A DNA stretch of 28,372 nt from Candidatus Nanobsidianus stetteri (GCF_003086415.1 NZ_QEFP02000010.1:1-28372); one strand, 5' to 3'; positions 2,573 to 22,669 are shown, numbered from the stretch's first letter. Notes: generated by a model not told the origin, from the sequence alone. Translations and numbers: made by a program.

Positions 2573-2760
2573 CAATAATATAAATACAAGAGAAATATTA
2601 GAGAATCTAAAAGAAAAATTAAAAGAAAAATCTGAATATTTAAATTTAGATATAAAAAAATAAATATTATATAATATTTGCAAAGAGTTTTAAAGAAAGA
2701 ATTAAAGATGATAAAACATATTTATTTGATTTAAAAGATTTAGAAAATATAATGTATTGA
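2573..2760 (+). pseudogene. degraded 3' tail of an archaeal ATPase/DUF234-type gene (paralogous to 15885-16060)
   Basis: Nucleotide homology to the end of the 15824..16060 ORF (..EKSEYLNLDIKK.. versus ..EKSEYINLDIKNKYYIIFAKSFKERIK..). It is broken by a frameshift and premature stops. Confidence 0.6.
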
Positions 2761-2871
2761 ATATAAGAATTAAATAATTTGTTATCGGTTAATTTCATAA
2801 TATTTTATTGGATATATTATAAAATTATCAATTAAAAAATTTTTAATTTGTTAGAATAATAATAAATTACT

Positions 2872-2903
2872 TTTGAAATAAAAATCTAATAAAGGCTAAA
2901 AAA
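2872..2903 (-). terminator. conserved T-rich 3' flank module of cassette P1
   Basis: Plus-strand TTTGAAATAAAAATCTAATAAAGGCTAAAA lies just below the stop codon. On the coding strand it reads ..TAGCCTTTATTAGATTTTTATTTCAAA with oligo-T runs. The module recurs after most cassettes. Confidence 0.45.
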
Positions 2904-2910
2904 GTTAAAT

Positions 2911-3564
2911 TTAGAGGACCCCTCGCTGCAAAGATACTTTCATATAAAATATACCCTCGTCATAAATAGCCGAATTACCATTTATACTTAATTCTGGAAT
3001 TGCTTTTTTTGGCTTATCTAGATCCATAGAGATATCTGTACGTGTATGATACTCAGGTAATTTTAGATATAATATTTTATGAATATCTAGAATTTTCTCT
3101 TTTATACTGTCTATGAAAGAAGTGATTTGATGAGAATATCTAAGTCTTTTATCATCATGATGAGGGCATTCAATATGATAAGGTGAATGTTGTGTGTCTA
3201 AAAGACACAGAAATTCTTTATCTTCATAAAGGTACATTATAATATCATTTTCACATAATATAAGTTCATTACTAAATTTCTTACAATACGAATATGCTAC
3301 TGTATTGGATTTTTTTATTTCAGATATATCAGTCTTTTCTTTTACATATTCATATATTTCATTAAATAATTCCTTTAGACCTTTTACATGATCTCTTATA
3401 CGATATTTTAATTCCCATATATTAAGGTTTTCCATTATCTCAAATATTTTTTCAGAGCTTTTATTTAATTGTTGATCGTATTTTTGACTTTTATCAGTTT
3501 CTTTTAGATGTTCCTCAATTATTTTCATTAAATCCTTTCTTCCATATAGCTGTTGGCTATCCAT
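2911..3564 (-). CDS. cassette-family protein P1 (217 aa; subtype B, 4-Cys; duplicated N-terminal module)
   Basis: MDSQQ start, a helical ..VKEKTDISEIK segment, and a Cys ladder C-x9-C-x15-C-x12-C. It has the conserved 5' and 3' flanks shared with the other cassettes. Confidence 0.8.
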   Translation of the reverse strand: MDSQQLYGRKDLMKIIEEHLKETDKSQKYDQQLNKSSEKIFEIMENLNIWELKYRIRDHVKGLKELFNEIYEYVKEKTDISEIKKSNTVAYSYCKKFSNELILCENDIIMYLYEDKEFLCLLDTQHSPYHIECPHHDDKRLRYSHQITSFIDSIKEKILDIHKILYLKLPEYHTRTDISMDLDKPKKAIPELSINGNSAIYDEGIFYMKVSLQRGVL

Positions 3565-3582
3565 ACTATTATACTATATAAA

Positions 3583-3596
3583 AGATTTGTAAATTT
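3583..3596 (-). promoter_or_regulatory. TATA-like promoter core of P1 (AGATTTGTAAATTT)
   Basis: A variant of the family palindrome, centred about 25 nt upstream of the ATG at 3564. Confidence 0.5.
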
Positions 3597-3870
3597 ATCT
3601 TATATTATAATCATGTAATTGTAATGGGCAAATATTTTAAAAATAAAATATCTATAATTATAAACTCAAAAATAAAAATTAGCAAATGAATAATTAAAGA
3701 TTATCCATATTTAAGTTCTATAGATAGTATATTAAATAATTTAAATATTAGAGCGTGATATAAAATTCTTGAAAATTAACGTATAGAATATAATAAGAAT
3801 TAAATAATTTGTTGTTATCAATTATTGAGCTAAATAGATTAGCATTAATATACTCTTTAATATAATTATT

Positions 3871-3901
3871 TTTGAAATAAAAAATCTAATAAAGGCTAAA
3901 A
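3871..3901 (-). terminator. conserved T-rich 3' flank module of cassette P2
   Basis: TTTGAAATAAAAAATCTAATAAAGGCTAAAA lies immediately below the stop at 3905. Confidence 0.45.
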
Positions 3902-3904
3902 TAG

Positions 3905-4576
3905 TTATGACTTAGGACGAAGATAACGGTACCAACGTATTGAAATTTTATATATACTATCTATATATTCAAATTTATGTCTACTTATACTTATTTTTGG
4001 ATTCTCTCGTATTCGCTTTTTTAAATCTATAGAAGCATCTGCGAATATATTCATATATTGATCGCCCATATTCGTAAGTTCTCTCGGATCTAATAATATA
4101 TCATCTAATATATTTAAAACTGATTTTTTTATACCTTCTGGGAAAGGACATTTTTGAAGAGGATCAGATAATATAAATGTCTTACCATCATAATCAAGGC
4201 ATTCAATTTTATAAGATGTTCGGTCTAAACTACACAAAATATGTACATTTTCATCTTCATCATATTTATAATGATGATAATAAATATATGTTAGAAGATG
4301 ATTGTATACACTCCTATTATAAATATCTGACGTAAGATAATTATATTCGGGTCTCATATATTCATTAAAAGGTTCATTAGCATCTTTATTATAATGCAAA
4401 CCTACGTATGCTTCGAGTCTTTTTGCTTCAGATATACCAGCCTTTTCTAGTGCTTTTTCAACCAATTCGTTTAATGAGTCCTTTAGTTCTTCTATATCAT
4501 ATACTACTCGTTCCTTAAGTTCTTCTATTAAATTAAATGTTTTTTTATAACTTTTATCCGGTTGTTGCTTGTTCAT
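3905..4576 (-). CDS. cassette-family protein P2 (223 aa; subtype A)
   Basis: MNKQQ start, IEELKDSLNELVEKALEKAGISE, a Tyr/Asn-rich insert, KIEC..DGKTFILSDPLQKCPFPEGIKKSVLNIL, NMGDQY and ENPKISI. Paralogous to P5 and P7. Confidence 0.8.
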   Translation of the reverse strand: MNKQQPDKSYKKTFNLIEELKERVVYDIEELKDSLNELVEKALEKAGISEAKRLEAYVGLHYNKDANEPFNEYMRPEYNYLTSDIYNRSVYNHLLTYIYYHHYKYDEDENVHILCSLDRTSYKIECLDYDGKTFILSDPLQKCPFPEGIKKSVLNILDDILLDPRELTNMGDQYMNIFADASIDLKKRIRENPKISISRHKFEYIDSIYKISIRWYRYLRPKS

Positions 4577-4593
4577 ATTATTACATTATATAA

Positions 4594-4606
4594 AAATTTT
4601 AAATTT
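4594..4606 (-). promoter_or_regulatory. TATA-like promoter core of P2 (AAATTTTAAATTT, 13-nt variant)
   Basis: Occupies the same position as the family palindrome, centred about 24 nt upstream of the ATG at 4576. Confidence 0.45.
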
Positions 4607-4702
4607 ATATTGTATTCTAATTATATAATTGTAATAAACAAAAAATATAAATTCAAAGATAAAATTGACGACTATATAATTATAGAATAATAATAAATCA
4701 CT

Positions 4703-4735
4703 TTTGAAATAAAAAAAATCTAATAAAGGCTAAAA
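4703..4735 (-). terminator. conserved T-rich 3' flank module of cassette P3
   Basis: TTTGAAATAAAAAAAATCTAATAAAGGCTAAAAA lies just below the stop at 4740. Confidence 0.45.
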
Positions 4736-4739
4736 ATAG

Positions 4740-5552
4740 TTATGACTTAAAAGAATCATAAAAGGGTGTGGTCACATCAGTATAATATCTGCCAAAGACC
4801 AAAATTAGCCTGGCCTTTAATGGACCTTTGTCATATTCAATTTCATAAGTATTGCTACTTGTTTTATGTGTACTTATTCTTGCATTCTCCATTGTCTGCT
4901 TGTTTAAATCCCTAGAAATCTCTCCATATATACGTATATACTTATATATCTCATCCATCTCCTTAAGTACAGGGTCTACTGTAGATAATGTATAATATAT
5001 ACCTTTAAATGGACCTATTATACTGTTTATATCGTTTATGGGAGAACTAGACTTGGGTAACTCAAATGCTGATTCAAAAATATAGCGAATACTATATTGA
5101 ATGCATCTAAATCTATCATAATAATCTCTTGAGTTTGAATAACACTCAATTATTTTAGTACTATAAGACTGTATTTTAATATAATGACTTTCACAGTGCA
5201 GGCCTCCGTAATCCTGTTTACTAAAAATCAAGTCTACTCTTGCATCATATATTCTTATTTCAGGTAGATTAGTCGCTTCTTGTACTTTTTTAACAATTTT
5301 GTCTAATGCTCCCTCTAGTTGCATTATAGGAAATCTTAATCCGCTATTTAACTCTGGTATTTTTTTAGAACTTTTATCAGTTTTTTCTAACCATTTATCA
5401 ATTCTTTTCCCTATATCAGATATTTTTTCAGAATTTTTATCTGATCTTTGATTAGATCTTTTACTTTTATCAGTTTTTTCTAGCCAGTCATAAACGCTTT
5501 TTAATATCTCAGATATTTTTTCAGATTTTTCATCTGATTGTTGATAGTCCAT
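4740..5552 (-). CDS. cassette-family protein P3 (270 aa from the conserved ATG; subtype C; internal tandem repeat)
   Basis: The track ORF starts at a GTG at 5561. The ATG at 5552 gives MDYQQ and sits in the conserved CCATACTA context used by the other copies. The motifs YGGLHC, IIECYSNS and RFRCIQYS are shared with P4. Confidence 0.8.
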   Translation of the reverse strand: MDYQQSDEKSEKISEILKSVYDWLEKTDKSKRSNQRSDKNSEKISDIGKRIDKWLEKTDKSSKKIPELNSGLRFPIMQLEGALDKIVKKVQEATNLPEIRIYDARVDLIFSKQDYGGLHCESHYIKIQSYSTKIIECYSNSRDYYDRFRCIQYSIRYIFESAFELPKSSSPINDINSIIGPFKGIYYTLSTVDPVLKEMDEIYKYIRIYGEISRDLNKQTMENARISTHKTSSNTYEIEYDKGPLKARLILVFGRYYTDVTTPFYDSFKS

Positions 5553-5572
5553 ACTACACACTATGTAGGAAA

Positions 5573-5586
5573 AAATTTATAAATTT
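5573..5586 (-). promoter_or_regulatory. TATA-like promoter core of P3 (perfect palindrome AAATTTATAAATTT)
   Basis: Centred about 27 nt upstream of the ATG at 5552. Identical 14-mers occur upstream of P4, P5 and P6. Confidence 0.55.
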
Positions 5587-5892
5587 ATCTTATACTATAA
5601 TTATATAATTGTAATAAATAAATATTTTTAAAAATAAAATATCTATAATTATAAACTCAAAAATAAAAAATTAATGACTAAATAATTAAAGATCAATCAA
5701 TATTAAAAGTAATTTGGTTAGATAAAAATAAACAGAACTTAATGTAAAAGCTAATACTATTCTAAGAATTTCTGATACTATTATATTTATCATTATTATC
5801 ACAATAATATAAGTAAAACATAAAAATGAATATTTTGACCATGTTGCTTTCTATAAAACCTATTTCACAGTAAAAATAAACCTTATTCAAAT

Positions 5893-6119
5893 ATTTTTAT
5901 AAAAAATATAACTTCGAACTATAAGTTAAGAAAAGTCGTTTCCTTTATACTTTCAAAAACTATTAAAGATACAGTTTCTTTTACTCCTTTAATTTCTCTT
6001 ATCTTATCTAAAACTGCTTTTCCTAAACCCTCAACATCTTTTTCTCTAACCTTTGCAATCATATCCCAATCCCCAGCTATTATATGGACTTCTTGAATTT
6101 CTGGTAAGTTTGCAATTTT
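5893..6119. repeat. 227-bp perfect direct repeat, copy B (identical to 2114-2340)
   Basis: Covers 26 nt downstream of the lrp stop plus the last 201 nt of the lrp CDS. Confidence 0.95.
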
Positions 6120-6377
6120 TTCTGCAACTTCTCTTTGTTTAATACCTGCAGAGGGATCATATTTTATTAAAACAAAAGCCAAAACATTTTTACCAATAGC
6201 TTTAGGATCTAAAATTGCTCTATATTCTTTTATTATTCCTGCATTTTCTAATCTCTTTATTCTAGCGAAAATTGTAGTCTCTCTCATTTCTGTAATTTGA
6301 GAAAGTTCTCTTAATGAAAGTTTGCAATTCTTCTGTAAAAGTGAGAGTAATTGTTTATCCTTTTCATCTATCTTCAT
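5919..6377 (-). CDS. lrp: Lrp/AsnC-family transcriptional regulator (152 aa)
   Basis: N-terminal HTH (LSLRELSQITEMRETTIFARIKRLENAGII) followed by a C-terminal AsnC/RAM-type effector domain. The length is typical for the family. Confidence 0.9.
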   Translation of the reverse strand: MKIDEKDKQLLSLLQKNCKLSLRELSQITEMRETTIFARIKRLENAGIIKEYRAILDPKAIGKNVLAFVLIKYDPSAGIKQREVAEKIANLPEIQEVHIIAGDWDMIAKVREKDVEGLGKAVLDKIREIKGVKETVSLIVFESIKETTFLNL

Positions 6378-8248: not shown

Positions 8249-8441
8249 TTTATAATATATTATTGCCTTATATATAAATATATTTTGAGGATTATTAGAG
8301 TGTTATTATTGTTATAATTGAAATATCTATGTCTATGAAGAATTTTATCAAAAATAATTTAGTGAGAGTAATATTATTTATTTATATTAATTGAATAAAA
8401 TTGGTTATGAAAAATATTTATGTTCTTATAATTAATAAAAT

Positions 8442-8573
8442 CTATTTTCCAGATAATATATTCATTAATTCTTTAAATCCTCCCAATTCTTCTTTAGAAA
8501 TTCCATATAATTCAGCAACTGCCAAATCAATTTCATCTTCAACTTTCCTAAGTTCTTCATTTGCATTAATAGT
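8442..8573 (-). pseudogene. orphan C-terminal fragment (TINANEELRKVEDEIDLAVAELYGISKEELGGFKELMNILSGK), second copy of the 2372-2503 module
   Basis: About 150 bp (8428-8575) aligns with 2355-2512. The upstream part of track ORF 8442..8648 overlaps the metallopeptidase gene and is not conserved. Confidence 0.5.
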
Positions 8574-8574
8574 T

Positions 8575-8925
8575 TTAAAGTAGTTTAGTTCTAAGATTAG
8601 ATTTTTGTATTGCACTATATATTTCTGTTTCATATTTAGTAATTTCATCCATACTATAAATAGAAAGAAGTTTATTTAGAAATTTTGCTCCATGACCTTT
8701 GGTGTTAGTTAATTTATGAATTACTTCATGAACTATAATATATGTAAGACAATCTTCACTAACATTTTTGAAAATATCTTCGTTTATTACAATAAGATCT
8801 TTTTCCCAATCATAATATGCTATCGCTCTAATTTTTTTAGTTAATATTTTAATTGAATCAACTTTTGTTAAATCTATTACTTTAGATTTTATATTTTCAA
8901 TATCAATTTTTGTTGTCATTTTCAT
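8575..8925 (-). CDS. small HExxH zinc metallopeptidase-like protein (DUF45/YgjP-like), last gene of the Type I R-M operon
   Basis: VHEVIHK (HExxH) followed by GHGAKF. It overlaps the hsdR 3' end by 23 nt. COG1451/DUF45 proteins are commonly linked to Type I R-M loci. Confidence 0.6.
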   Translation of the reverse strand: MKMTTKIDIENIKSKVIDLTKVDSIKILTKKIRAIAYYDWEKDLIVINEDIFKNVSEDCLTYIIVHEVIHKLTNTKGHGAKFLNKLLSIYSMDEITKYETEIYSAIQKSNLRTKLL

Positions 8926-11900
8926 ATAACCATCTAATTATCTGATCCTTTATTTTCTCAACTAATTCGACTTTAATATATCTGTCTTCTATTTTTATAT
9001 TTTTACAGTTCTTTACAATATCTATCTTTAATAGCTTTTCTAGCTCGCTTTCTTTGCTATCTATAATATATTTTGCATCTTTGAAAGATTTATTTTTTAT
9101 CATATCTTTTATCTTATTTAGAAAATCTGATAGCTTATTGAAATTTATTTCTTTACAAGATTCGCCAAATTCTTCAGTTAATGCTAATCTTATAGAATAT
9201 AGTATTTTATCTATATCATTCATTTTATTTCTATTTTCAGAATATTTCGTTATTTGATCATAAATTGATTTCAATTGACGTAATATCTCTTTAGTATCTT
9301 GTTTTCTAGCAATCCAGTCTTCTTCTAATTTATTTAATATTTCCGATACTTTTTTATAAAAAGGATCAATGTCTATATCTTCTTCTATTTTCTTATGTAT
9401 TACTAGAAAATATGCATATGTTTTATTTTTAATCTCTTTTTCAGATATTTCAGCCATTTTTTCTAAGATTTTATCATTAATAATTGCACTTTCATCTTCT
9501 TTAAATCTTTCAATTTCCGTTTTATCGTAGATCAAATCTAGTATTTCGTTGAGTAATTTATTTAAACCTTTTATTTTTTTATTTTGTTGACTATTTATTA
9601 ATCTTAATAAAATTTTAACTGTATCTATATCATCTTTATATATTATTTTAGTTGAGGAATTATTATATGGAGATAGAGAATTATAGAATTTTATAACTTT
9701 AACTAAACTATTTATTGTAGACTTTAAATTACTAATTTGTTTTGATAAATTTTCATCATATATAGAATCTAAGTTGTTGAAATAATAATAAAATCTTATT
9801 TTTCTTATTTTATCTTCATATTTTTTTATCCAATTTTCTGTCGATTTTATATCTCTTTTAAGTTCATCCAAATCTATACTTAAATTTTCTCCATTAACAT
9901 ATAATGATTTTAGATTATTTTTAACTTTATCAAAGCATTTCTTAAAATTCTCTTCTTCAGTATTTTCATCTTTTAGAGTAGTTTCTAATTCTTCTTCTAT
10001 ATTTTTTATATCTTTTTGTTGCGATAGCAATCTATTATATTTAATTAGTGTCTTCTTTAAATTTGGTAAAAGACCTATAGAATCTACAACTAATCCCGTT
10101 TCTTTTCCAGGGAAGGGTCTATTCACTCTTCCAATAGCTTGAAGTAATTTGTGACTATAAATTGGTTTATCTAAATACATAACTCTTAATTTAGGATAAT
10201 CAAAACCTGTAATAAGCATATCTGTTACTATTAAAATCCTTGGATCCGATGAATTCTTGAAGTTATCTATAATATTAGAATTAATTTCATCAAAATCTTT
10301 AATTCCGTATTTATTTCTTAATTCTTCCATATATTGTCTAATATCAGGATCTGTTTCATTATAATTATATGTCATTACTATTTCAGACCAATTTTTAGCT
10401 TGTTCTCCAAATGTTTCAATTAGATGTTTATCAAGATATCTTTTCATTAATACACATGCTTTTCTATTAGCCATTACTATCATAGCTTTAAATCTAAATT
10501 CTGGTATTTTAATATTAAAATCCTTTGATTTATTGTTTATATCTATCGTTTGTGTATCTTCTAAAATATGTTCTGTAATATATTTGGCCAATGCATCAAT
10601 TCTTTTTGGATTTAGTAGAAATACTTTTATTTCATTTATTATATTTTTTAACTGCTTATCAGAGATATTAATATTATCTTGTTCAAAATATTCACTAATA
10701 TCTTTTCCTTTTCTTTCATTTTTCAAATATTCTTCTATATATTTTTCAATTTCATTTTCATCTAATTGGAATCTTATACTATTTTCTCCTTCCTTTATAG
10801 ACTTATATATTATTGGTAATGTAGCCCCATCTTTAATTGAATCATTTATAGAATAGGCATCTAAATAAAATTCATTCAGATCTGGATAAGAAAATTCTTT
10901 CAGAGTGTTTTTATCTTCATTAAGTATTGGTGTTGCGGTAAAACCTATAGTTATAGCATTGGGAAATGCTAATCTTCTAACAGAAGCTAGTCTACCATAT
11001 TGACTTCTATGTGCTTCATCAATTAAGAATAATATTTCTTTTTTATTGGGAGCTCCTAATTTAAAACATTCTTCAATTTTATTCTTATCATTAAGTTCTG
11101 AACTCTTTATCTTTTCGTATTCTGAAGGATTTGATGTTTTAAGATAATCCAAATATTCATCTTTTAATTTACAAAGAAGATTAATTATTCCTTCTCTTTC
11201 TTCGTTTTCTAAATCTCCTTTTTGAAATTTTTGTATAGTTACTATATAAATTCCACGGGGAGCAGTTTTACCATTGGAAAATTCAGATTCTTTAATTTGT
11301 TTTATTAAATGATGAAGTTCAGAGATACTATTAATCTTAGTAATATTTTTATAATTAGTTAAAAGTTTATCATGTATTTTAGAAAAGGTATCTGAATGTT
11401 GCTTTTCTAGATCTTGTCTATCTACAACTATAAAAATTATAGGACTTCTATCTGAATAATTAAGTAAGAACTTGTAAGCTATAAAGAACATTGTATAAGT
11501 TTTTCCACTTCCAAGCCAATGCCAAATTAAACCTCTATTTTTATTCGATTTTTCATCTAGATATTCTTTTATTCTATTAAAAGATTTTTCTGCAGCTCTA
11601 TATTGATAATATCTGGCAGCTATTCTATAATAATTATTGTCAGATTTTATTACAAAGACATAATATTTTAAAAAATTTAATAAAGTAGTAGGATTTAAAA
11701 GATCATATATATTATCTTTTCCATCTATTTTCCAGATTTGTAGATTTTTTTCTCTAGGTTTATTATCATAATTTGGAAAAATAGGTACATAACCTTTTTC
11801 CTTACCAATTGCAAATCCTATATGAGTCATTTTGGCAAGCTCTGGGGCTTTTATTTCATATATAGAAAGTTGATTTAATGCTTCGTATTCGGTATCTGGA

Positions 11901-12367
11901 AGTTCTCTTTTTATTTCTACTAAAGCTAATGGAATACCATTTATAAATAATGTAAAATCAGGTTCAATAATATCTATACCTTTAAATTTTAATTCATGAG
12001 CATAAATAAATGAATTTTTTGATATATTATCATAGTCAATAAGTTTTAAATTAAGACTAGTAGATGGGTCTTCAGGATTATCAAAGGTTATACCATGTTT
12101 TATATAATCGGAAAATTCTGATAAAGTAGAATTTTGGATTTTTCTTTTTATTTCATTTAAAATCTTATTTATACTATTGTTAGATAATTTATTAAATATA
12201 TCCTTATTTATTTCTCTTATTTTTTTATCTAGTTCTTCCTCTATGATATATGAAGGAGATATACTATGTTCTTTAAGATCAGGATAAGAATTAGTAATAT
12301 TTTTCCATCCTAGCTTTTCGATATTCTTTATAAAGTGATTATGATCTACTGAAATCTCTAGTCTCAT
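8903..12367 (-). CDS. hsdR: Type I restriction enzyme, R subunit (1154 aa)
   Basis: N-terminal PD-(D/E)xK-like motif (IEPDFTLF..LALVEIKRE), helicase motif I LGSGKT and DEAH box LIDEAHRSQ. Its start overlaps the hsdS stop in a 4-nt ATGA. Confidence 0.92.
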   Translation of the reverse strand: MRLEISVDHNHFIKNIEKLGWKNITNSYPDLKEHSISPSYIIEEELDKKIREINKDIFNKLSNNSINKILNEIKRKIQNSTLSEFSDYIKHGITFDNPEDPSTSLNLKLIDYDNISKNSFIYAHELKFKGIDIIEPDFTLFINGIPLALVEIKRELPDTEYEALNQLSIYEIKAPELAKMTHIGFAIGKEKGYVPIFPNYDNKPREKNLQIWKIDGKDNIYDLLNPTTLLNFLKYYVFVIKSDNNYYRIAARYYQYRAAEKSFNRIKEYLDEKSNKNRGLIWHWLGSGKTYTMFFIAYKFLLNYSDRSPIIFIVVDRQDLEKQHSDTFSKIHDKLLTNYKNITKINSISELHHLIKQIKESEFSNGKTAPRGIYIVTIQKFQKGDLENEEREGIINLLCKLKDEYLDYLKTSNPSEYEKIKSSELNDKNKIEECFKLGAPNKKEILFLIDEAHRSQYGRLASVRRLAFPNAITIGFTATPILNEDKNTLKEFSYPDLNEFYLDAYSINDSIKDGATLPIIYKSIKEGENSIRFQLDENEIEKYIEEYLKNERKGKDISEYFEQDNINISDKQLKNIINEIKVFLLNPKRIDALAKYITEHILEDTQTIDINNKSKDFNIKIPEFRFKAMIVMANRKACVLMKRYLDKHLIETFGEQAKNWSEIVMTYNYNETDPDIRQYMEELRNKYGIKDFDEINSNIIDNFKNSSDPRILIVTDMLITGFDYPKLRVMYLDKPIYSHKLLQAIGRVNRPFPGKETGLVVDSIGLLPNLKKTLIKYNRLLSQQKDIKNIEEELETTLKDENTEEENFKKCFDKVKNNLKSLYVNGENLSIDLDELKRDIKSTENWIKKYEDKIRKIRFYYYFNNLDSIYDENLSKQISNLKSTINSLVKVIKFYNSLSPYNNSSTKIIYKDDIDTVKILLRLINSQQNKKIKGLNKLLNEILDLIYDKTEIERFKEDESAIINDKILEKMAEISEKEIKNKTYAYFLVIHKKIEEDIDIDPFYKKVSEILNKLEEDWIARKQDTKEILRQLKSIYDQITKYSENRNKMNDIDKILYSIRLALTEEFGESCKEINFNKLSDFLNKIKDMIKNKSFKDAKYIIDSKESELEKLLKIDIVKNCKNIKIEDRYIKVELVEKIKDQIIRWLYENDNKN

Positions 12368-13656
12368 TTTAGGTCACCTATTGCGATCGAATTTACCCTT
12401 ATCTTGCCCGTCATTAAAGCCGCTAATAATTTTTCTTTCAATTTCTTCATATAATCTAAATATTTTGTTTCAGTCTCAATTTTGTTATCGATTGTTGAAA
12501 GTATTTCTGCTATTTTCTTCTGTTCTTCTAATGGGGGTAGAGGTATCTTAATTGATTTTAATTTGGATGCTTGGATAGTTTTAATGGTAGTTTGTGATGA
12601 AATATTATCCAAATTTTTCTTAAAAAAATCTGATAGGAAAAACTGTTTAAAAAATGGAGGATAGCATCTTAAACGATTGAGCGAAATTTTCATTAAATTA
12701 GCCGTTATGTTTGCTCCTTCTAGAAATTTAGGAACTATAGCAACTTTTCCCAAAGTTCCTCGTACTGATAGAACAAAATCACCTTCATTTAAGATAGTTC
12801 TATAAAATCTTTTAGAAGTTTCTTTTGAAATAAATCTATATTTACTTAGATCGTCTTCAAGTTCTCCATTTTCTTTTATAAGTTCTGCTCTAACTTCCGG
12901 AACCCCTTCATTCATTCCTACATATTTAATATTGTAATAGGTAGGATACCTATATATATCTATAGCTATCTCTTCAAGCTTAACAATTTCCCAATTCTTT
13001 GGTATCTTTCCAATCTCTGTATCTTTAAATTCTTTATGCCATATTTTCCCAGTAATAAGTAAATTTAATGTTTTTTCTTTTAATATTTTTAGTTTTTCAA
13101 TTAAATTTGTTGTATCTATAATTATAGTATCTACAGTATTAAGAATTTCAACAATCTTTTTTTGTTCCTCTAATGGAGGGATAGGGACTGAGCTATTTAA
13201 AACTATTTCAAGTGTAAGATTGGGTTGAGTACTCTTTTTAATAAATTTACTCCAATAAGGTTTGAAGTATAGATACCAATAATATAAAAATTCTGTATCT
13301 ATAATATTCTTATTAGGTATTATTCCTACAATTGCTTGATTTGTCGTTACTGGTATTTTATTAATTGCAACAAATCCTATAGAACCATAAATTGTTAATA
13401 GTAAAGAATTCTCTGGAACTATCCAAGCATTAGAATTTTCTAATCCTTTTTCAGTAATGAATTCTTCAGTATTATATAGATACTTACTAGATTTCGTTAT
13501 ATCTTGTGCCTTTACAAATGGAATATTTCCGTTCCAATACTCGGGAACATTTGTTCTAGGTGTTCCTCCAGATTTTGCTTTTATTATAACATCTTTTAAT
13601 TTTCTTACTTCCCAATCTTTAGGAAATTTTATAAATTCATCATTATATTCACTCAT
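12364..13656 (-). CDS. hsdS: Type I R-M specificity subunit (430 aa, two target-recognition domains)
   Basis: Two TRD halves are each followed by a conserved helix: PIPPLEEQKKIVEILNTVD and PLPPLEEQKKIAEILSTID. It overlaps both hsdM and hsdR. Confidence 0.92.
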   Translation of the reverse strand: MSEYNDEFIKFPKDWEVRKLKDVIIKAKSGGTPRTNVPEYWNGNIPFVKAQDITKSSKYLYNTEEFITEKGLENSNAWIVPENSLLLTIYGSIGFVAINKIPVTTNQAIVGIIPNKNIIDTEFLYYWYLYFKPYWSKFIKKSTQPNLTLEIVLNSSVPIPPLEEQKKIVEILNTVDTIIIDTTNLIEKLKILKEKTLNLLITGKIWHKEFKDTEIGKIPKNWEIVKLEEIAIDIYRYPTYYNIKYVGMNEGVPEVRAELIKENGELEDDLSKYRFISKETSKRFYRTILNEGDFVLSVRGTLGKVAIVPKFLEGANITANLMKISLNRLRCYPPFFKQFFLSDFFKKNLDNISSQTTIKTIQASKLKSIKIPLPPLEEQKKIAEILSTIDNKIETETKYLDYMKKLKEKLLAALMTGKIRVNSIAIGDLK

Positions 13657-15205
13657 TTTTATTAACTATAATTCTAATTATCTCTTTCAATTCCTTTTCC
13701 TTTTCTTCCCTTTCTTTTTTAATCTCTTCTATATTTTTCCATAATTCTTTTATTTCATCTATACTTACAGAATTATTATTCTGAATTTTTGTAACATAAT
13801 TGGATACATTTAAATTGTAATCATTTTTTATTATTTCTTCTATGTCTACTACTCTAGAAAAACCAGGTATTGTTTTAAATTCTTTATATATTTCTACTAT
13901 TTTTTGTATATGTTCATTGCTTAGTTTATTTAATTTTCTAACTTCGAGATGTTTAACATAAAGATCTGTTGCATCTATAAAAAGAATTTTTCTTTTTCTA
14001 TCTTCTTGTTTTTCTTTATTAAATATTATTATTATTCCAGATGCTTGAGTATTATAAAATAATTTTTCTGGAAGTAGAATTATTGCTTCTATCAGATCAT
14101 CATTAACAATTTTTTCTCTGATTGCTTTTTCTTTTCCCTCTCTAAATAAAGCACCTTGATCTAGTATAACTCCAACTTTCTTTTTAGCATAATATAACAT
14201 CAACTGTATCCACGCCCAATCTGCAGTATTATTTGGGGGAAAGCCATATTTGTAAATTTTGCGTAAACTAATATCATTACCCAATATTTCTTCACCATAT
14301 CCATCTTGATTCCATGGAGGATTGGCTACAACATAATCAACTTTAAATTGTGAATTTTCATCAAACTTAAGCTTTTTTAGACTATCTCCTACCTGAATTT
14401 TTATTAAATTTTTTTCAATTCCATGTAATATAAAGTTTAATTTAGCTATTGCTGCCATATCTGGATTATATTCTTGTCCAAATAGACCAACTCTACTAAC
14501 TCCACCTTTTTCTTTTGTATATTTATAAGCTTCTATTAACATTGCTCCAGATCCCATGGCAGGATCTAATATATCAGACCCAGGTTCTGGGTCAATTAAT
14601 CTTATTAATAATTTAATTACTTCATATGGTGTATATACCTCTCCTTCTTTACCTTTGGTTGGAGCAAATTGAGCTAAAATATACATGTAAGCATCTCCTA
14701 TAATATCATAATCAACGTTAGAAAAATCCAACTTATCAAATATTCTTTTTATTTGATCGAGTCTGGCTTTATGTTCGCTTTCCAAATGTGAAATTCCTAA
14801 TTTATCTAATAGAGCTTTCATTAAATCTTTGCTTATAATATCAGGATTTAATTCAGCAAATTTTATTAAAGCATTTTGGAATTCTTCTAAATAATTACTT
14901 TTCTTAGTTATTTCTTTCCATGTTATTAATTCTCTATTATTTTCATCATACATCTTAAAATCAGAGTTTGCTATAATATAAGCTTCTTCTCTAGATAGTC
15001 CTTCTTCTTTAATTATTCGGTTAACTTCACTTTCATATCTATCACTTATGGCTTTATAGAAAAGAAATATTAATAGTGATCTATAATCTAAACCTGTTCT
15101 AATTAAATCAGCACCTTGCTTCAAAGTTGTAAATAAATCTTTTTTTGATAATTTAGTAGAATTATTTAAGTAATCATTAATTGTCTTTTCCATATATTTT
15201 ATCAA
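13649..15205 (-). CDS. hsdM: Type I R-M N6-adenine DNA methyltransferase subunit (518 aa)
   Basis: SAM-binding motif I DPAMGSGAML and catalytic motif IV VVANPPWN. It is the first gene of the overlapping hsdM-hsdS-hsdR operon. Confidence 0.92.
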   Translation of the reverse strand: MIKYMEKTINDYLNNSTKLSKKDLFTTLKQGADLIRTGLDYRSLLIFLFYKAISDRYESEVNRIIKEEGLSREEAYIIANSDFKMYDENNRELITWKEITKKSNYLEEFQNALIKFAELNPDIISKDLMKALLDKLGISHLESEHKARLDQIKRIFDKLDFSNVDYDIIGDAYMYILAQFAPTKGKEGEVYTPYEVIKLLIRLIDPEPGSDILDPAMGSGAMLIEAYKYTKEKGGVSRVGLFGQEYNPDMAAIAKLNFILHGIEKNLIKIQVGDSLKKLKFDENSQFKVDYVVANPPWNQDGYGEEILGNDISLRKIYKYGFPPNNTADWAWIQLMLYYAKKKVGVILDQGALFREGKEKAIREKIVNDDLIEAIILLPEKLFYNTQASGIIIIFNKEKQEDRKRKILFIDATDLYVKHLEVRKLNKLSNEHIQKIVEIYKEFKTIPGFSRVVDIEEIIKNDYNLNVSNYVTKIQNNNSVSIDEIKELWKNIEEIKKEREEKEKELKEIIRIIVNKNE

Positions 15206-15677: not shown

Positions 15678-16060
15678 ATGATTATACAAAATTTCAAAGA
15701 TAGAAAAGAAGAATTAACCTAGGATATGTTTTTGAAGATATAGCAAAACAATTTTTAATAAAAAGCAAATTATTTAAATTTACAAAAATTGGAAAATGGT
15801 GGTATAAAGATAAAGAAATAGATTTGGTTGCATATAATGAAAATACAAAAGATATATATTTTATAGAATGTAAATATTCTGATAATATAAATGCAAAAGA
15901 AGTATTGGAAGATTTAAAAGAAAAATCTGAATATATAAATTTAGATATAAAAAATAAATACTATATAATATTTGCAAAGAGTTTTAAAGAAAGAATTAAA
16001 GAGAATAATTTACATTTATTTGATTTAAAAGATTTAGAAAATATAATATATCGAATATAA
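15678..16060 (+). pseudogene. gutted archaeal ATPase (Arch_ATPase/DUF234-type) gene: 14 N-terminal codons joined out of frame to the C-terminal DUF234-like tail
   Basis: MIIQNFKDRKEELT* (15678-15722) resembles the F-x-[DN]-R-x-x-E-L start of archaeal ATPases. From 15722 another frame reads GYVFEDIAKQFL..IGKWWYKDKEIDLVAY..FIECKYSD.., which is DUF234-like. The P-loop core is absent. Confidence 0.6.
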
Positions 16061-16167
16061 GAATTAAATAATTTGTTGTTATCAATTAATTTCATAATAT
16101 TTTATTAAATATTTTGCAAAATCATCAATTAAAAAATTTTCTAATTTGTTAGAATAATGTAATTATT

Positions 16168-16197
16168 TTTGAAATAAAAATCTAATAAGGGCTAAAA
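16168..16197 (-). terminator. conserved T-rich 3' flank module of cassette P4
   Basis: TTTGAAATAAAAATCTAATAAGGGCTAAAA lies below the stop at 16210. Confidence 0.45.
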
Positions 16198-16209
16198 AAT
16201 TATAGCTTA

Positions 16210-16758
16210 TTAATAATATTGGTAGTGTATATTAATATTAGGTTCTTCCTTTCCATGTCTAGAAGCAGTTACTGTTATACGCATTCTTTGCTGATCACCC
16301 ATATCTGTAAATGCTTCTGGCTTTGATACACCTAATGCAATTAGAACTAAATATTTCATACCATCTAGGAAATTAGCGATTTGGGGCAAATCAGATAATT
16401 CAAATGATGACTTACTGCTATAATGAGTGCAGCGAAGTTTATTAGGTGAAAATGTAGAGTTCGAATGACATTCAATTTCATCCTTGTCTTTTAGAGAATT
16501 AAGAACGTATAATGTAAAATCATAGTTATCGCACTGAATACCTCCATACATACCTTTACGACAATCCAAACTACCTGCTAAAGAGTATCCTCTCACCCCA
16601 AATTCTTTTATTCCAAAGTCGTTGGTAGCCTTTTCTTTCACATATGCAGCCGTTCCTAGTAATAAGCTATCTAGTTGGCTTCCAATAAGTTGTAACCCTT
16701 TATTAATTTTTTCTCCCTGTATTTTTTCAGGTTCTTTATATAGTTGTTGGCCGTCCAT
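16210..16758 (-). CDS. cassette-family protein P4 (182 aa from the conserved ATG; subtype C, 4-Cys)
   Basis: The ATG at 16758 gives MDGQQLY in the conserved CCATACTA context; the track start at 16770 is less likely. Cys ladder C-x9-C-x20-C-x12-C. The motifs YGGIQC, EIECHSNS and LRCTHYS are shared with P3. Confidence 0.8.
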   Translation of the reverse strand: MDGQQLYKEPEKIQGEKINKGLQLIGSQLDSLLLGTAAYVKEKATNDFGIKEFGVRGYSLAGSLDCRKGMYGGIQCDNYDFTLYVLNSLKDKDEIECHSNSTFSPNKLRCTHYSSKSSFELSDLPQIANFLDGMKYLVLIALGVSKPEAFTDMGDQQRMRITVTASRHGKEEPNINIHYQYY

Positions 16759-16935: not shown

Positions 16936-17613
16936 TTATGACTTAGAAGAGCGATTTAAGTACCACCAGGTAATATTAACATTAAATCCATTCTCATTAT
17001 ATTTAAATTCATTATTATATTCACTTTTATGTATACTTATTAATGGATTTGCTTTTATTTGATTGTCTGGATACCCCGAAGCCTTTATGACTATATTCAT
17101 ACTTTTATTACCCATATTTGTAAGTTCTCCTTGATCTAATATATCATATAATATATTTAGAGTTGATTTTTTTATATCTTCTGGGAAAGGACATTTTTGA
17201 AGAGGATCTGATAACGTAAATTTTTTACCATTATAATCAGAGCATATAATTTTATAAAGTAGTGGGTTTAAATGACATGAAAGTACTTTTCTATTACCTT
17301 TTTTATTATAATAAATATATATTGTAAGATAACCATATTCACCTTTATTATAAAAGTCTTCTATAAGATATGTAAGATAATTATATCCATGCCTCTTAAG
17401 TTTACTAGTAATTTCATTAAAATCAAAATATTTAGGGTAACTTAAACCTATGGATGCATCGAATATTCCTATTTCAGATATGCCAACCTTTTCTAGTGCT
17501 TTTTTAACCACTTCACTTAATGAGCTCTTTAGTTTTTTTATATCATATTCTAGTTCCCATTGTTTAATTTTTTTCATTAAATCGGAACTTTTATATAGAT
17601 ATTGACTGTCCAT
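16936..17613 (-). CDS. cassette-family protein P5 (225 aa; subtype A)
   Basis: MDSQYLY start, IKKLKSSLSEVVKKALEKVGISE, a Tyr-rich insert, KIICSDYNGKKFTLSDPLQKCPFPEDIKKSTLNIL and NMGNKS. It has the conserved flanks. Confidence 0.8.
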   Translation of the reverse strand: MDSQYLYKSSDLMKKIKQWELEYDIKKLKSSLSEVVKKALEKVGISEIGIFDASIGLSYPKYFDFNEITSKLKRHGYNYLTYLIEDFYNKGEYGYLTIYIYYNKKGNRKVLSCHLNPLLYKIICSDYNGKKFTLSDPLQKCPFPEDIKKSTLNILYDILDQGELTNMGNKSMNIVIKASGYPDNQIKANPLISIHKSEYNNEFKYNENGFNVNITWWYLNRSSKS

Positions 17614-17633: not shown

Positions 17634-17647
17634 AAATTTATAAATTT
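17634..17647 (-). promoter_or_regulatory. TATA-like promoter core of P5 (AAATTTATAAATTT)
   Basis: Perfect palindrome centred about 27 nt upstream of the ATG at 17613. Confidence 0.55.
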
Positions 17648-18077
17648 ATCTTATACTATAGTTATATAATTGTAACAAACAAATATTTTTAAAAATAAAA
17701 TATCTATAATTATGAAATCAGGGCATAATAATTATTTGATAGTCTAATCGTCTTCTATTTAAGTTCTCTGGATAGTTGTTAAATAATTTAATATTAAAGT
17801 ATGATATAAAATTCTTGAAAATTAATGTATAAAATATAAGAATTAAATAACTTGTTGTCAATTCTTGAGTTAAATAGATTAGTATTATACTTAACCAGAT
17901 CTCTTTACTTTTTCGGCAAGTCAAAGTTCTAAGCGTTTTTGGCCAATCTGTAGTATGTTAGCATACTTCTTGAAGATAATCTCAAATAAAGATCTATTAT
18001 CATCTAGACTAGGTTATCTAGTCAGGCAACTAAGAGTTCTTTATCATAAAAGTTAAGGTACCTTACACTAAGTCTCT

Positions 18078-19166
18078 CTATTCTTTACTATCTCTTTTAG
18101 TGTCAACCGGTCTGCTATCTTCTTGCGAATGATGAATATCTTTTCCCAACCTCTTAAAGAGCTCTGAAATAGTTTCTATCGCAATCTTTCTTGCTATAAA
18201 AGCGTAAGGGTTATTTTTTTGGATCTCCATTACTATGTCCTCCTGAGAGCTCACTCTATTTATAATCCTCATCAGATCCTTGAAGGTCACAGTTTTCATG
18301 ACTTCTATCTCTTTCTTGACACCCAATACTTTTGCCAACTTATTGTAACTTTCCTTCAAGGCCAGCAAATAAAAGTGAGAAAGTACCTGAACTACTGCCA
18401 TAGCCTTATCGTGCTTCTCAGGGTCGCTAATGATAACATTCAATCCAGCCGACTTCCAGAAAGAGATAACGTCGCTTATGTCTTCACTAGTTTTAGAGGG
18501 TATGACTACTATATCCTCTCCTATTGGGTTTGATTGGGGACCGAAGAGAGGATGAGTGGAGACGAACCGGAAAGATTCCTCAATACTGATTCTCTCGAGG
18601 AAGTCAAAGTTGTCTCCCTTAACGGAGAGGATGTCCATCACAGTCTTTCCTCTTAATGCAGTCTTCAGGTTAAAGAAGTAATCTCCCTTGATTGCCTCGG
18701 GTGGTAGGGCTAAAATTATGTAATCCCCCCATTTCAGAGCTTCATTCTGGGGCATATAGACGCATCCAGATTCCTTTGCAACATTCTCAGCTTTATCAGA
18801 GTTCCTGCCCGTTATTACCACATTGTGTCCGGCTGAGGTGAGAAGCTTGGCCAAAGCTTTGCCCATGCCTCCATATCCTACTATAGTTACTCTCTTGGGA
18901 TAGGAATTGGTAAGCTGAACTTTCTTAGAGTAATACAAAATGGAGTTTACAAGTTCTCTTGCCAATTCTTCAGGAACATTCAGTTTTTTGGAATTTTCGA
19001 CCCAATTCTTTAGTACTTCTGCTTCCCTAGTCTCATCTTTAATAGGTAAACCTAACATATTCTTAATCTCAGCTATTTTTCTAGAAATCAAAAACCTTTG
19101 AGAAATTAAATAAAGGATCTGATAATCTATCTCATCTATTTTATCTCTCAGTTCTTTCAGGCTCAT
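18078..19166 (-). CDS. tyrA: bifunctional chorismate mutase / prephenate dehydrogenase (362 aa)
   Basis: N-terminal AroQ-type chorismate mutase helix (LRDKIDEIDYQILYLISQRFLISRKIAEIK). This is followed by a Rossmann VTIVGYGGMGKALA and the prephenate dehydrogenase signature STHPLFGP. Confidence 0.85.
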   Translation of the reverse strand: MSLKELRDKIDEIDYQILYLISQRFLISRKIAEIKNMLGLPIKDETREAEVLKNWVENSKKLNVPEELARELVNSILYYSKKVQLTNSYPKRVTIVGYGGMGKALAKLLTSAGHNVVITGRNSDKAENVAKESGCVYMPQNEALKWGDYIILALPPEAIKGDYFFNLKTALRGKTVMDILSVKGDNFDFLERISIEESFRFVSTHPLFGPQSNPIGEDIVVIPSKTSEDISDVISFWKSAGLNVIISDPEKHDKAMAVVQVLSHFYLLALKESYNKLAKVLGVKKEIEVMKTVTFKDLMRIINRVSSQEDIVMEIQKNNPYAFIARKIAIETISELFKRLGKDIHHSQEDSRPVDTKRDSKE

Positions 19167-19324
19167 TTTATTAACTCAATGTGGATTGGTTTATGATGCT
19201 CTCCAATCTTCTTATTCAGTGATATCCTCATCAAAGTTTTATTATTGATGGTCTGATGATTGGAACTGTTAGGTGCGTCGTTGTATCTGGAGTGAACAAC
19301 TATAAACTTCACTTCTAGGTTCAT
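19163..19324 (-). CDS. small ORF (53 aa, MNLEVKFIVVHSRYNDAPNSS..) translationally coupled to tyrA; possibly the tail of a truncated upstream gene
   Basis: Not in the ORF track. Its stop overlaps the tyrA start in an ATGA (19163-19166). It has the GC-richer composition of the island and begins exactly at the junction with the cassette remnant. Confidence 0.3.
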   Translation of the reverse strand: MNLEVKFIVVHSRYNDAPNSSNHQTINNKTLMRISLNKKIGEHHKPIHIELIK

Positions 19325-19443
19325 CACGATATGACAGTCTTTGATTGTGCATTTTCAGCCATTTCGTTTAATGAGTTCTCTAAATGTTTTATGGGAAAAT
19401 CAAATATTTTTTCAGAACTTTCATATAATTGTATATTTTCCAT
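19324..19443 (-). pseudogene. 5' remnant of a cassette-family gene (MENIQLYESSEKIFDFPIKHLENSLNEMAENAQ..)
   Basis: The N-terminus is homologous to family members (M-x-x-x-Q-L-Y-x-S-S, then ..SLNEM..). Homology stops after about 34 codons at the GC-rich segment. The proximal promoter module, about 50 bp including the palindrome, is deleted; only the distal module remains (19444-19500). Confidence 0.75.
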
Positions 19444-19557
19444 AATATTGTAATAAGCAAATATTTTAAAAAATGAAGTATCTATAATTATAAAGTTAAA
19501 AATAAAAATTAACGGCAAAATAATTATGAAATAATAATATAGTACAATCCAGAAGGG

Positions 19558-20181
19558 CTAATATAAGTTACAAAACATTGTAATAGTAGATCTACCATTG
19601 TAATAAATAAATATATTATCATCTATAATTATTACTGGATTCTCTATTCTTTGCTTATATGGATCTGTAGAAACAGTTGCTCTCATGTGTATATATTGAT
19701 TACCCATATGCATAGGTACAGCTGGATGTAATGTATTATGTATACTTCGAATTGAATCTTTTATACCCTCCCTAAAAGAAAAGCCTCTAGGATTTTGGGG
19801 AGAATCTTGGGGAGGATCATATAACTCAAACGATTTACCAATATAATCGGTACATTTAATTTTATAAGATATTGTGTTTGAACGACACTCAGCTAATTTA
19901 TATTTATCTTCATTATAAAAGGATGTTGTAATATCGTATCCGCACAACATAAGTCCATCACTATGCTTATGGCAACCCATATCTATTTCGGTAAGGTTTT
20001 TTCTTATTTCAGATAAATAAGTCTTTTCTTTTACTTCTTTAGTCATCCACTTTAATAAGTCCTCTAATTTTTTTATATGATCATTTAGTCTTTTTTTAGT
20101 TTCTTCTTCCGACAATCTATTAATTTTTTCCATTAAATCAGATATATTTTCAAAACTATTAACCGGTTGTTGATCATTCAT
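19558..20181 (-). CDS. cassette-family protein P6 (207 aa; subtype B, 4-Cys)
   Basis: MNDQQ start, IKKLEDLLKWMTKEVKEKTYLSEIR, cysteines at residues 70/80/99/110 (C-x9-C-x18-C-x10-C), HMGNQY and ENPVIII. Confidence 0.8.
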   Translation of the reverse strand: MNDQQPVNSFENISDLMEKINRLSEEETKKRLNDHIKKLEDLLKWMTKEVKEKTYLSEIRKNLTEIDMGCHKHSDGLMLCGYDITTSFYNEDKYKLAECRSNTISYKIKCTDYIGKSFELYDPPQDSPQNPRGFSFREGIKDSIRSIHNTLHPAVPMHMGNQYIHMRATVSTDPYKQRIENPVIIIDDNIFIYYNGRSTITMFCNLY

Positions 20182-22649: not shown

Positions 22650-22669
22650 ACTATTCTATTATATAAGAA

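Follow-up and report, generated by a model that had tools for sequence, protein, structure and literature searches.

The DNA examined here is a stretch of 28,372 nucleotides from Candidatus Nanobsidianus stetteri (GCF_003086415.1 NZ_QEFP02000010.1:1-28372), referred to at its full length as the window. Its G+C content is 24%, and it carries two tandem arrays of one orphan protein-coding gene, with copies P1 to P3 in array 1 and P4 to P9 in array 2. Each copy forms part of a cassette, i.e. an open reading frame (ORF) of 180-270 codons together with an upstream module conserved over 110-150 nt and a T-rich terminator module of about 50 nt. The family profile matches all nine cassettes (E-values of 1e-48 to 1e-85) and one 5' relic, and nothing else in the window. 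The nine copies take up about 8 kb, or some 1.3% of the 0.6-Mb genome. Comparisons were made with Candidatus Nanopusillus acidilobi (N. acidilobi) 7A, with Candidatus Nanobsidianus stetteri Nst1, and with related genomes and metagenome contigs labelled L001, L002 and so on. P1, P2 and P3 have the coordinates given by a previous reading of the window, made from the sequence alone (hereafter the sequence-only reading), and lie on the minus strand. The cassette genes and associated features are:

2911-3564, minus strand: P1, 217 amino acids (aa); clade also holding P8; 96% identical to metagenomic protein P0001
3905-4576, minus strand: P2, 223 aa; clade with P5 and P7
4740-5552, minus strand: P3, 270 aa; 93% identical to the L018 ortholog
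16210-16758, minus strand: P4, 182 aa from the family-type ATG at 16758; 90% identical to the L024 ortholog
16936-17613, minus strand: P5, 225 aa; P2/P7 clade, yet with a type I promoter
18078-19166, minus strand: chorismate mutase/prephenate dehydrogenase (CM/PDH) gene, about 40% G+C, foreign cargo inside array 2
19324-19518 (profile match 19327-19557), minus strand: 5' cassette relic, truncated by insertion; promoter with an internal deletion
19558-20181, minus strand: P6, 207 aa
20365-21045, minus strand: P7, 226 aa
21214-21895, minus strand: P8, cassette with a +1 frameshift in an A9 run (21828-21836); L015 ortholog intact
22053-22649, minus strand: P9, 198 aa; protein modelled with AlphaFold2

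Pairwise identity among the nine cassette proteins is 25-51%. P2 groups with P5 and P7 (45-51%) and P1 with P8; P3 has no close partner in the window. The three proteins of array 1 share 26-32% identity, in line with the earlier proposal that they represent three different subtypes. The view that array 1 holds one member per subtype stands, but three subtypes are too few for a family comprising 75 clusters at 50% identity. In the exhaustive profile search of 1.84 billion representative proteins that yielded these clusters, members covering the whole profile were about 190-280 aa long, shorter matches being fragments, and all 27 matches of a word-indexed search came from metagenome or sequencing-run collections. 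We regard the cassettes as an orphan family specific to Nanopusillus-type Nanoarchaeota. A search of the literature yielded no description of the family or of variable arrays in Nanopusillus or Nanobsidianus; the genes are new as a protein family and new for Nanoarchaeota.

The family-type start codon of P3 is the ATG at 5552, the ORF lister having chosen an upstream GTG at 5561. A 93-nt tandem repeat at 5370-5545 gives the N-terminus of P3 two helical repeats of 31 aa each. Deleting one A from the A9 run of P8 restores a family-typical N-terminus (YIKKIDKSQKYDQ), and the frameshift could mean that P8 is a pseudogene, that slippage turns it on and off, or that the homopolymer was misread in sequencing. 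The CM/PDH gene sits where a cassette of array 2 was truncated, and the same insertion is present in L001 (93% identity; ratio of nonsynonymous to synonymous substitution rates, dN/dS, 0.39). Its nearest homologs outside Nanopusillus-like contigs come from a Thermoprotei metagenome-assembled genome (MAG; 64%) and from Sulfolobaceae (43-48%), so that the gene was probably acquired from a crenarchaeal, host-like lineage.

Promoter and terminator modules

As had been reported, P1, P2 and P3 carry promoter and terminator modules of the array-2 type. The upstream module forms a 116-nt repeat with nine copies in the window. A 40-nt promoter core (TTACAATTAYAT...GATAAATTTAYAAAT) occurs 7 times, compared to 0 occurrences in 100 shuffles, and the terminator-module pattern TTTGAAATAAAAAWYYWAWMARRGYTAAA is found at 5 sites against 0 expected. 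The modules of array 1 and of the upstream end of array 2 are:

2861-2910, minus strand: P1 terminator module, core 2872-2900; pattern TTTGAAATAAAAAWYYWAWMARRGYTAAA
3565-3700, minus strand: P1 promoter module, type I, core 3585-3624; TATA box TTTACAAA
3861-3904, minus strand: P2 terminator module; 2860-2907 matches 3858-3907 at 92%
4577-4739, minus strand: tight junction, P3 terminator module followed directly by the P2 promoter module (type II)
5553-5712, minus strand: P3 promoter module, type I, core 5575-5614, and array-1 upstream boundary (5670-5712)
22650-22784, minus strand: P9 promoter module, type II, and array-2 upstream boundary

Conservation along the cassettes was followed on an aligned profile, ungapped profiles anchored at the ATG or the stop codon being blurred by small indels. 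Between -67 and +5 of the ATG the copies have a mean pairwise identity of 0.83-0.89, and farther upstream, as far as -112, one of 0.73-0.76. The value is approximately 0.66-0.70 over the first 40 coding nucleotides, 0.5-0.6 deeper in the ORF and 0.4-0.6 ahead of the stop codon, then 0.75-1.0 at +8 to +55 past the stop. A TATA box (TTTATAAA or TTTACAAA) can be read about 27 nt upstream of the ATG (distance to its centre), a position from which a separate leaderless transcript is predicted for every cassette.

The same promoter core is found ahead of over 60 cassettes, in related contigs of several lineages and in Nst1. A near-invariant element, TTGTTTRTTACAATTA, is likewise common to more than 60 cassettes of several lineages, its distance to the ATG downstream being about 60-75 nt (examples in the window are the promoter modules at 3585-3640, 5575-5630 and 17636-17690). 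The outer half-sites of the element, TTGT...ACAA, are palindromic, and it may represent a common operator. A gene for an Lrp/AsnC regulator (5919-6377) is located directly upstream of array 1. The exact promoter pattern gave zero matches in GTDB genomes, where cassettes with slightly different promoters do occur; the family alignment is too diverged for a degenerate-pattern genome scan.

Within the window, similarities between ORFs, upstream modules and downstream modules are uncorrelated (Mantel r = 0.10, -0.08 and 0.08, not significant). Promoter types I and II are mixed within ORF clades, P5 having a type I promoter and its closest ORFs, P2 and P7, type II promoters, and the L008 ortholog of P7 carries a P8-type promoter. 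The incongruence between modules and ORFs is one of Mantel correlations and module types. Since module and ORF similarity are uncoupled and related strains hold other cassettes at the same positions, the suggestion that ORFs are exchanged within fixed flanks is supported.

Cassette content in related genomes

Synteny with related strains reveals extensive variation at the array-2 site, i.e. between orf73/orf111/TyrRS and DUF234, where 0-6 cassettes are found in varying order. There are none in N. acidilobi 7A; one, together with a glycosyltransferase gene, in L030; three each in Nst1, L031 and L004; four in L015; five in L002; and six, plus the relic and the foreign gene, in the window. In L027 the site features a glycosyltransferase gene, one distant relative of the family (hhalign E = 5e-4) and one unrelated ORF. 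Cassette order is partly conserved, with P7-P8-P9 next to the boundary in L015 and P7-P9 in L008, and an extra cassette is present between the P9-like copy and the boundary in L002 and L004.

Clues on the mode of cassette replacement or exchange, which the sequence-only reading had proposed, were obtained from L008, a contig without P8. Beginning at the end of P9, it agrees with the window up to and including the P8-type promoter, and at the ATG it changes to the P7 ORF, so that the crossover lies inside shared sequence just upstream of the ATG. Judged from this alignment, a crossover within shared promoter-proximal sequence produced the junction, either deleting a cassette or, in the reciprocal case, inserting one. 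Several adjacencies recur in independent assemblies: P9-P8-P7 in L015, Lrp-P3 in L018, P5-spacer-CM/PDH-relic in L001 and DUF234-P4 in L024.

Array boundaries and the origin of array 1

The relic and spacer sequences at and within the two arrays are:

2104-2340: Lrp/AsnC 3'-end relic plus 36 nt downstream, matching 5883-6119 at 99.2% over 237 nt
2347-2507: 3'-end relic of a type IIG restriction-modification (R-M) gene with Eco57I/MmeI-type domains; 88.8% to a second relic at 8420-8577
2575-2860, plus strand: DUF234 ATPase 3'-end relic, array-1 downstream boundary; match to 15882-16199
3690-3860: spacer tail' of array 1, between P2 and P1, with a DUF234-3'-end-like core; matches 17740-17900
15824-16060, plus strand: DUF234 78-aa tail (Pfam match to DUF234), array-2 downstream boundary
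17740-17900: spacer tail' of array 2, upstream of P5, with a DUF234-3'-end-like core; counterpart of 3690-3860

The two arrays had been said to share their upstream as well as their downstream boundary. Downstream, 2575-2903 matches 15882-16199 at 85.9% over 333 nt, a match that breaks off about 8-11 nt before the stop codons of P1 and P4. These two cassettes indeed occupy the same place beside the DUF234 tail while belonging to different subtypes (only 34% identical). Upstream, 5670-5712 matches 22742-22784 at 35 of 43 positions; the boundary is thus shared, but the similarity stops near 5712 and 22784 instead of reaching 5725 and 22800. It is better than expected for AT-rich sequence (score 27 versus 12.5 +/- 2.1, reached by 0 of 2000 dinucleotide shuffles, z about 6.9), and 22742-22784 is the best match to the 5670-5712 query anywhere in the window. 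Part of the boundary stretch quoted in the sequence-only reading is generic module, also present upstream of P1. The end of the boundary lies close to the break in synteny with relatives, at 5696 for array 1 (N. acidilobi) and at 22772 for array 2 (most relatives; the conserved flank ends at this position in L002, L004, L027, L029, L033 and L035). Array 1 is absent in N. acidilobi, where homology from the Lrp side reaches down to 5696 at a site without cassettes.

Array 1 follows the plan tail - P1 - tail' - P2 - P3 - boundary, and array 2 the plan tail - P4 - P5 - tail' - [relic::CM/PDH] - P6 - P7 - P8 - P9 - boundary, such that P1 and the P4-P5 pair lie between the same flanks. A further match links 2727-2786 to 17802-17859 (83%). 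The Lrp relic, the type IIG relic and the internal spacer appear in the same order and orientation as on the chromosome from Lrp to array 2, and the type IIG relic displays 87-92% aa identity over 62 residues to the C-termini encoded by the full-length genes of L017, L019, L028 and L035. Taken together, the shared boundaries, the internal spacer and the two collinear relics strongly support a derivation of array 1 as an internally deleted copy of the Lrp-to-array-2 segment. The proposal of one segmental duplication is upheld as regards copying, which the collinear relics back, but a single event does not fit simply with relic identities of 99%, 89% and 86%; given these unequal values, copying was probably not one recent event. 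In L019, a P1-like cassette is found in an array-2-type context (type IIG gene - orf69 - DUF234 tail - P1-like - P7-like). This suggests that array 1 may descend from another lineage's version of the array-2 locus. The array 1 of L018 reads Lrp - P3 (93%) - different cassette - frameshifted P1-like copy - DUF234 tail.

The two copies of the Lrp relic sequence, at 2104-2340 and 5883-6119, form a direct repeat bracketing array 1. This 237-bp repeat is of far more recent date than the remaining relics, and in L018 no such sequence was seen after array 1. The genes at 21-2063 may have arrived through a recent rearrangement of which the repeat is a trace. Neither of the ORFs 2372-2683 and 2078-2317 is a gene, both being artefacts that run across relic fragments.

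Selection on the cassettes

For orthologous cassettes of the window and related contigs, dN/dS is 0.54-1.09 in 14 pairs; the pair formed by P4 and its L024 ortholog gives 2.5, a value resting on few changes. Genes for tyrosyl-tRNA synthetase (TyrRS), FlaI, FlaH, Lrp, an aminoacyl-tRNA synthetase (aaRS)-like protein and orf111 show values of 0.04-0.24 versus close Nanopusillus relatives, and for the closest pairs the absolute dN of cassettes exceeds that of neighbouring genes 6-10 times. Nevertheless, 63 ORFs that each span 150 or more of the 219 profile positions are open. With a random placement of the observed differences, survival of the open frame would have a probability of 0.0008-0.006 in diverged pairs. 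By this measure the cassette reading frames are kept open by selection, and the genes are not decaying. The L018 ortholog of P3 differs by a dS of 0.026, as opposed to 0.25 for the adjacent Lrp gene (L018 376-2014 against window 4740-6377), which indicates either that lineages have recently exchanged this cassette or that the assembly is chimeric. Members of the P9 clade vary most in the central helices, in one strand and in the last strand, a pattern too weak for naming a binding face.

Sequence and predicted structure of the cassette proteins

Two cysteines are invariant across the nine proteins, and the cysteines of a second pair are present or absent together. In P2 the first cysteine pair is missing, and there is an insertion rich in Tyr and Asn. 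No cassette protein matched Pfam at its cut-off; PHROGs (three cassettes scanned) and PADLOC (six scanned) returned marginal matches only (E 0.004-0.005), none of them credible, and the best matches of a sequence-profile search of the PDB were coiled-coil noise (E 0.1 or worse). The AlphaFold2 model of P9, computed from the family alignment, has a confident α/β fold (pLDDT 85, pTM 0.82) made of a long N-terminal helix, five strands, two helices and four strands. In the P3 model, a P9-like core follows two extra helices, which correspond to the 31-aa repeats. Foldseek comparison of these two models with the PDB and BFVD gave nothing with a template modelling (TM) score above 0.34. Recurrent matches to the LolA/LolB fold (E 1e-4 to 1e-3) were rejected at TM scores of 0.14-0.20 and a root mean square deviation of about 16 Å, as were MHC-I-like matches; the LolA/LolB resemblance of the models, which consists in a curved antiparallel sheet with helices on one face, is a lead only, the superposition being below a fold match (TM score above about 0.5) and sequence similarity being absent. 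No signal peptide, lipobox, membrane segment or C-terminal anchor was seen on reading the sequences, no predictor having been run, and the N-termini are hydrophilic (MDxQQ...SEKIS). The cassette products are accordingly predicted, from reading and modelling, to be soluble α/β proteins.

Genomic setting

The window encodes archaellum proteins FlaI, FlaH and FlaD/E, a class I Tyr/Trp-type tRNA synthetase, the Lrp/AsnC regulator, a class II aaRS-like protein and a type I R-M operon. Its FlaI is 94-97% identical to that of N. acidilobi 7A, Nst1 and several Nanopusillus MAGs, with which the flanking genes are syntenic, and this places the window with the Nanopusillus-type nanoarchaea.

Restriction systems near the arrays are interchangeable, being of type I, type IIG or McrBC depending on the genome. 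The slot at 8420-15205 of the window holds type I hsdR/S/M, which has taken the place of a type IIG enzyme, and only the 3' relic of the latter; the corresponding Eco57I/MmeI-like enzyme (1114-1142 aa) is intact in N. acidilobi, Nst1, L017 and L019, and the slot is found in other relatives at L028 14974-18357, L035 18072-21434 and L014 1725-5100. McrBC occurs in L014 and L016, adjoining another unit of DUF234 gene plus cassettes. With such exchangeable neighbours, the arrays sit in a variable island of the defence type. In all of the roughly 20 loci with a visible downstream array end, which represent three or more genomic contexts, a convergent ATPase gene with ATPase_2 and DUF234 domains has its 3' end directly against the last cassette. 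This gene is full length (442-444 aa) in Nst1, L004, L030, L031 and L035 (16525-17850 in the latter), and is cut to a 78-aa tail in N. acidilobi and in the window (15824-16060; relic 2575-2860). DUF234 has been classed as a PD-(D/E)XK nuclease domain (PMC3424549).

Recombination between modules as a probable source of cassette diversity

We consider it likely that arrays 1 and 2 are two copies of a hypervariable tandem cluster of independently transcribed orphan genes, diversified by recombination and located in a restriction/defence island. Homologous recombination between the shared modules, by unequal crossover or gene conversion, would delete, duplicate, replace and move cassettes, and would at the same time homogenise the modules. 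A segment of the array-2 type (Lrp ... type IIG R-M ... DUF234 ... cassettes) would have been copied next to Lrp, giving rise to array 1, from which redundant genes would then have been deleted, with cassettes turning over separately in each array. Every cassette would form its own leaderless mRNA unit, with TTGTTTRTTACAATTA perhaps serving as a shared operator. The proteins would act in conflict or partner recognition, either against viruses or towards the crenarchaeal host, in view of their diversifying evolution, their presence/absence polymorphism and their constant place beside the DUF234 ATPase-nuclease gene in a restriction island.

Several points weigh against this proposal. Just one breakpoint has been mapped at the nucleotide level. 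Assembly may have joined different strains at the modules in the metagenome contigs, and perhaps in the window as well, and such chimeras would mimic exchange. Identity exceeds composition-matched nulls by 0.20-0.22 in the flanks and by 0.16-0.18 in the ORFs, an only moderately larger excess for the flanks, and the contrast therefore lies mainly in the core modules. A dN/dS near 1 is also expected from relaxed constraint; promoters and leaderless starts are readings of the sequence; and the uneven relic identities fit poorly with a single duplication. The function, finally, is assigned from context alone, and the adjacent DUF234 gene is truncated at both arrays of the window, so that no dependence in cis is possible.

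Among rival explanations, none of which fits as well as the proposal above, the cassettes might form an ordinary tandem family evolving by plain duplication, divergence and random deletion, in which flanks stay alike through purifying selection on promoter and terminator and play no special role in recombination. We hold this to be unlikely, though with a chance that is far from negligible: conservation does peak in the region from the BRE/TATA elements (BRE, B recognition element) to the ATG and in the T-rich terminator, and the promoter core is retained across lineages as a regulatory element would be, but the 110-150 nt conserved go far beyond the needs of an archaeal core promoter, module variants I and II are independent of ORF clades, orthologous ORFs have different module types, and the L008 deletion fuses a P8-type promoter to the P7 ORF exactly within shared sequence. 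Of slightly smaller probability is a more specific functional view, in which the cassettes would be the partner-specific protein repertoire of an obligate ectosymbiont, either passed to the crenarchaeal host or binding molecules from it, for instance as LolA-like lipid carriers co-regulated via TTGTTTRTTACAATTA, perhaps by the adjacent Lrp-type regulator. Nanoarchaeota are reported not to make their own lipids. That the cassettes are non-functional duplicated relics drifting neutrally to loss appears very improbable. Such decay would account for dN/dS values of 0.5-1.1, for the frameshifted P8 and the truncated cassette and for the lack of cassettes at either site in N. acidilobi, yet it conflicts with the 63 open ORFs and the low probabilities under random change placement given above, with the confident fold predicted from the family alignment and with the two invariant cysteines. 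We give equally little weight to the idea that cassette order and apparent exchange are assembly chimeras caused by the repeated modules of 110-150 nt. These repeats are 75-90% identical and exceed many k-mers in length, and the P3/Lrp dS contrast in L018 could be explained by a chimeric join, but the same adjacencies recur across independent assemblies (L015, L018, L001 and L024), and the Nst1 single-cell assembly, checked by PCR and Sanger sequencing by its authors, also has three cassettes at the site.

Chances are slighter still that the arrays are part of a mobile element, such as an integrated virus or a plasmid. A variable region with a foreign gene of 40% G+C inside array 2, a P-loop ATPase gene (747-2063) beside array 1 and a 99% direct repeat around it would all be in keeping with such an origin; however, no capsid, integrase or replication genes were found, both the promoter pattern and relatives of the P1 clade were missing from the 2.9 million viral contigs searched, and several genomes have the arrays at identical chromosomal sites, flanked by conserved housekeeping genes. 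Two further models strike us as extremely unlikely. An integron-like, site-specific system with a recombinase acting at a conserved flank site would explain the cassette layout and the conserved junctions with variable content, but neither the ORFs of the window nor the flanking genes of the related loci examined contain an integrase or recombinase domain, each cassette has its own promoter, the sole resolved breakpoint lies in long homology and not in a short core site, and no tRNA, Rfam family or other structured RNA was found in the window. Antigenic variation from silent cassettes, with one expression site and promoterless donor copies, would similarly be compatible with tandem diverged paralogs having conserved flanks in an obligate symbiont. 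A promoter module and start codon are nevertheless present in nine of nine copies and an intact frame from the ATG in eight of nine (P8 being frameshifted), and there is no distinct expression locus, nor any signal peptide or membrane anchor evident on reading the sequences.

Comparison with known systems

In evolutionary mode, the lpl tandem paralog cluster of Staphylococcus aureus is the closest analogue described for the arrays. In lpl, located in the νSaα island, a conserved mid-ORF segment is the site of homologous recombination (Tsuru and Kobayashi 2008, PMC2568036); the conserved evolutionary unit is made of a 3' ORF part, the intergenic region and a 5' ORF part, and a role in host interaction is presumed (PMC2568036). 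Both are tandem paralogs in a variable island, with a nucleotide segment common to all copies and conserved far above the rest of the unit, with rearrangements between strains (here a breakpoint in the conserved segment of L008 and 0-6 cassettes at one site) and with incongruent histories of adjacent segments (here by Mantel tests and mixed module types). In contrast to lpl, conservation in the cassettes covers the intergenic promoter and terminator and reaches about 40 nt into the 5' coding sequence, the variable unit being the entire ORF; moreover, lpl genes encode lipoproteins with signal peptides in a bacterium, whereas the cassette proteins of this nanoarchaeon are without evident signal peptide.

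The vlp genes of Mycoplasma hyorhinis and the vsp genes of M. bovis form clusters of diverged genes with near-identical 5' upstream regions and strain-variable cluster size. Their products are lipoproteins whose signal peptide is conserved and whose C-termini are repetitive, and the genes are switched by the length of a promoter poly(A) tract or by site-specific inversion. Near-identical upstream regions, variable copy number and small host-dependent genomes are common to both cases, and the A9 frameshift of P8 recalls homopolymer switching, but lipoprotein signal peptides, repetitive C-termini and these modes of switching were not seen here. Integron arrays resemble the present ones in exchangeable single-gene units between fixed boundaries and in strain-variable content, and differ in that no integrase was found and that the cassettes have their own promoters, belong to one protein family and all point in the same direction. 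The terminator module is T-rich, and no palindrome of an attC-type site was evident in it on reading, no dedicated inverted-repeat search having been run. Polymorphic immunity or orphan gene arrays consist of small soluble proteins encoded by tandem diverged paralogs with high turnover among restriction/defence genes. The cassettes share with them tandem diverged paralogs without evident signal peptide, high turnover and a location among restriction genes, but have no linked toxin gene or domain and no similarity to immunity families in PADLOC or Pfam.

The genomes of Nanoarchaeota are among the smallest of any cell, and their paralog densities are among the lowest in Archaea (PMC3655853); against such a low density a multi-copy family is conspicuous. 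The combination of open frames kept by selection, fast evolution and 0-6 copy polymorphism marks genes of ongoing conflict or partner recognition. Host specificity, viruses and defence in the absence of CRISPR are the least understood aspects of the biology of these obligate symbionts, for which the family provides concrete candidates to be studied in the co-culture of N. acidilobi with Acidilobus and in related ones. A partner-specific repertoire, if confirmed, would set host range or counter the defences of host and virus, and the arrays would then be the first variable 'contingency' gene system described in Nanoarchaeota. The arrays also offer a clear archaeal example of whole-ORF shuffling via recombination between conserved promoter and terminator modules, at a hotspot that has also captured a host-type metabolic gene and swaps restriction systems.

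Other genes adjoining the arrays

Two genes at the start of the window lie beside array 1. The P-loop NTPase at 747-2063 (438 aa) has weak nSTAND3 and DnaC-like matches, confined to its Walker A motif. A 199-aa orphan is encoded at 21-620, and a homolog of it (52% over 104 aa) adjoins the DUF234-plus-cassette unit of L014. In some genomes, a zinc-ribbon N-terminus (MVKCPFCNSEDLTLISSWKYGAFDVYRYKCNKCGNKF) heads an ORF of 201-204 aa, and in L014 it heads a McrB-like AAA_5 protein (loci with this sequence: L028 14158-14760, L014 1725-3770 and L016 2747-3358). The shared N-terminus suggests a gene fusion or fission within the island.

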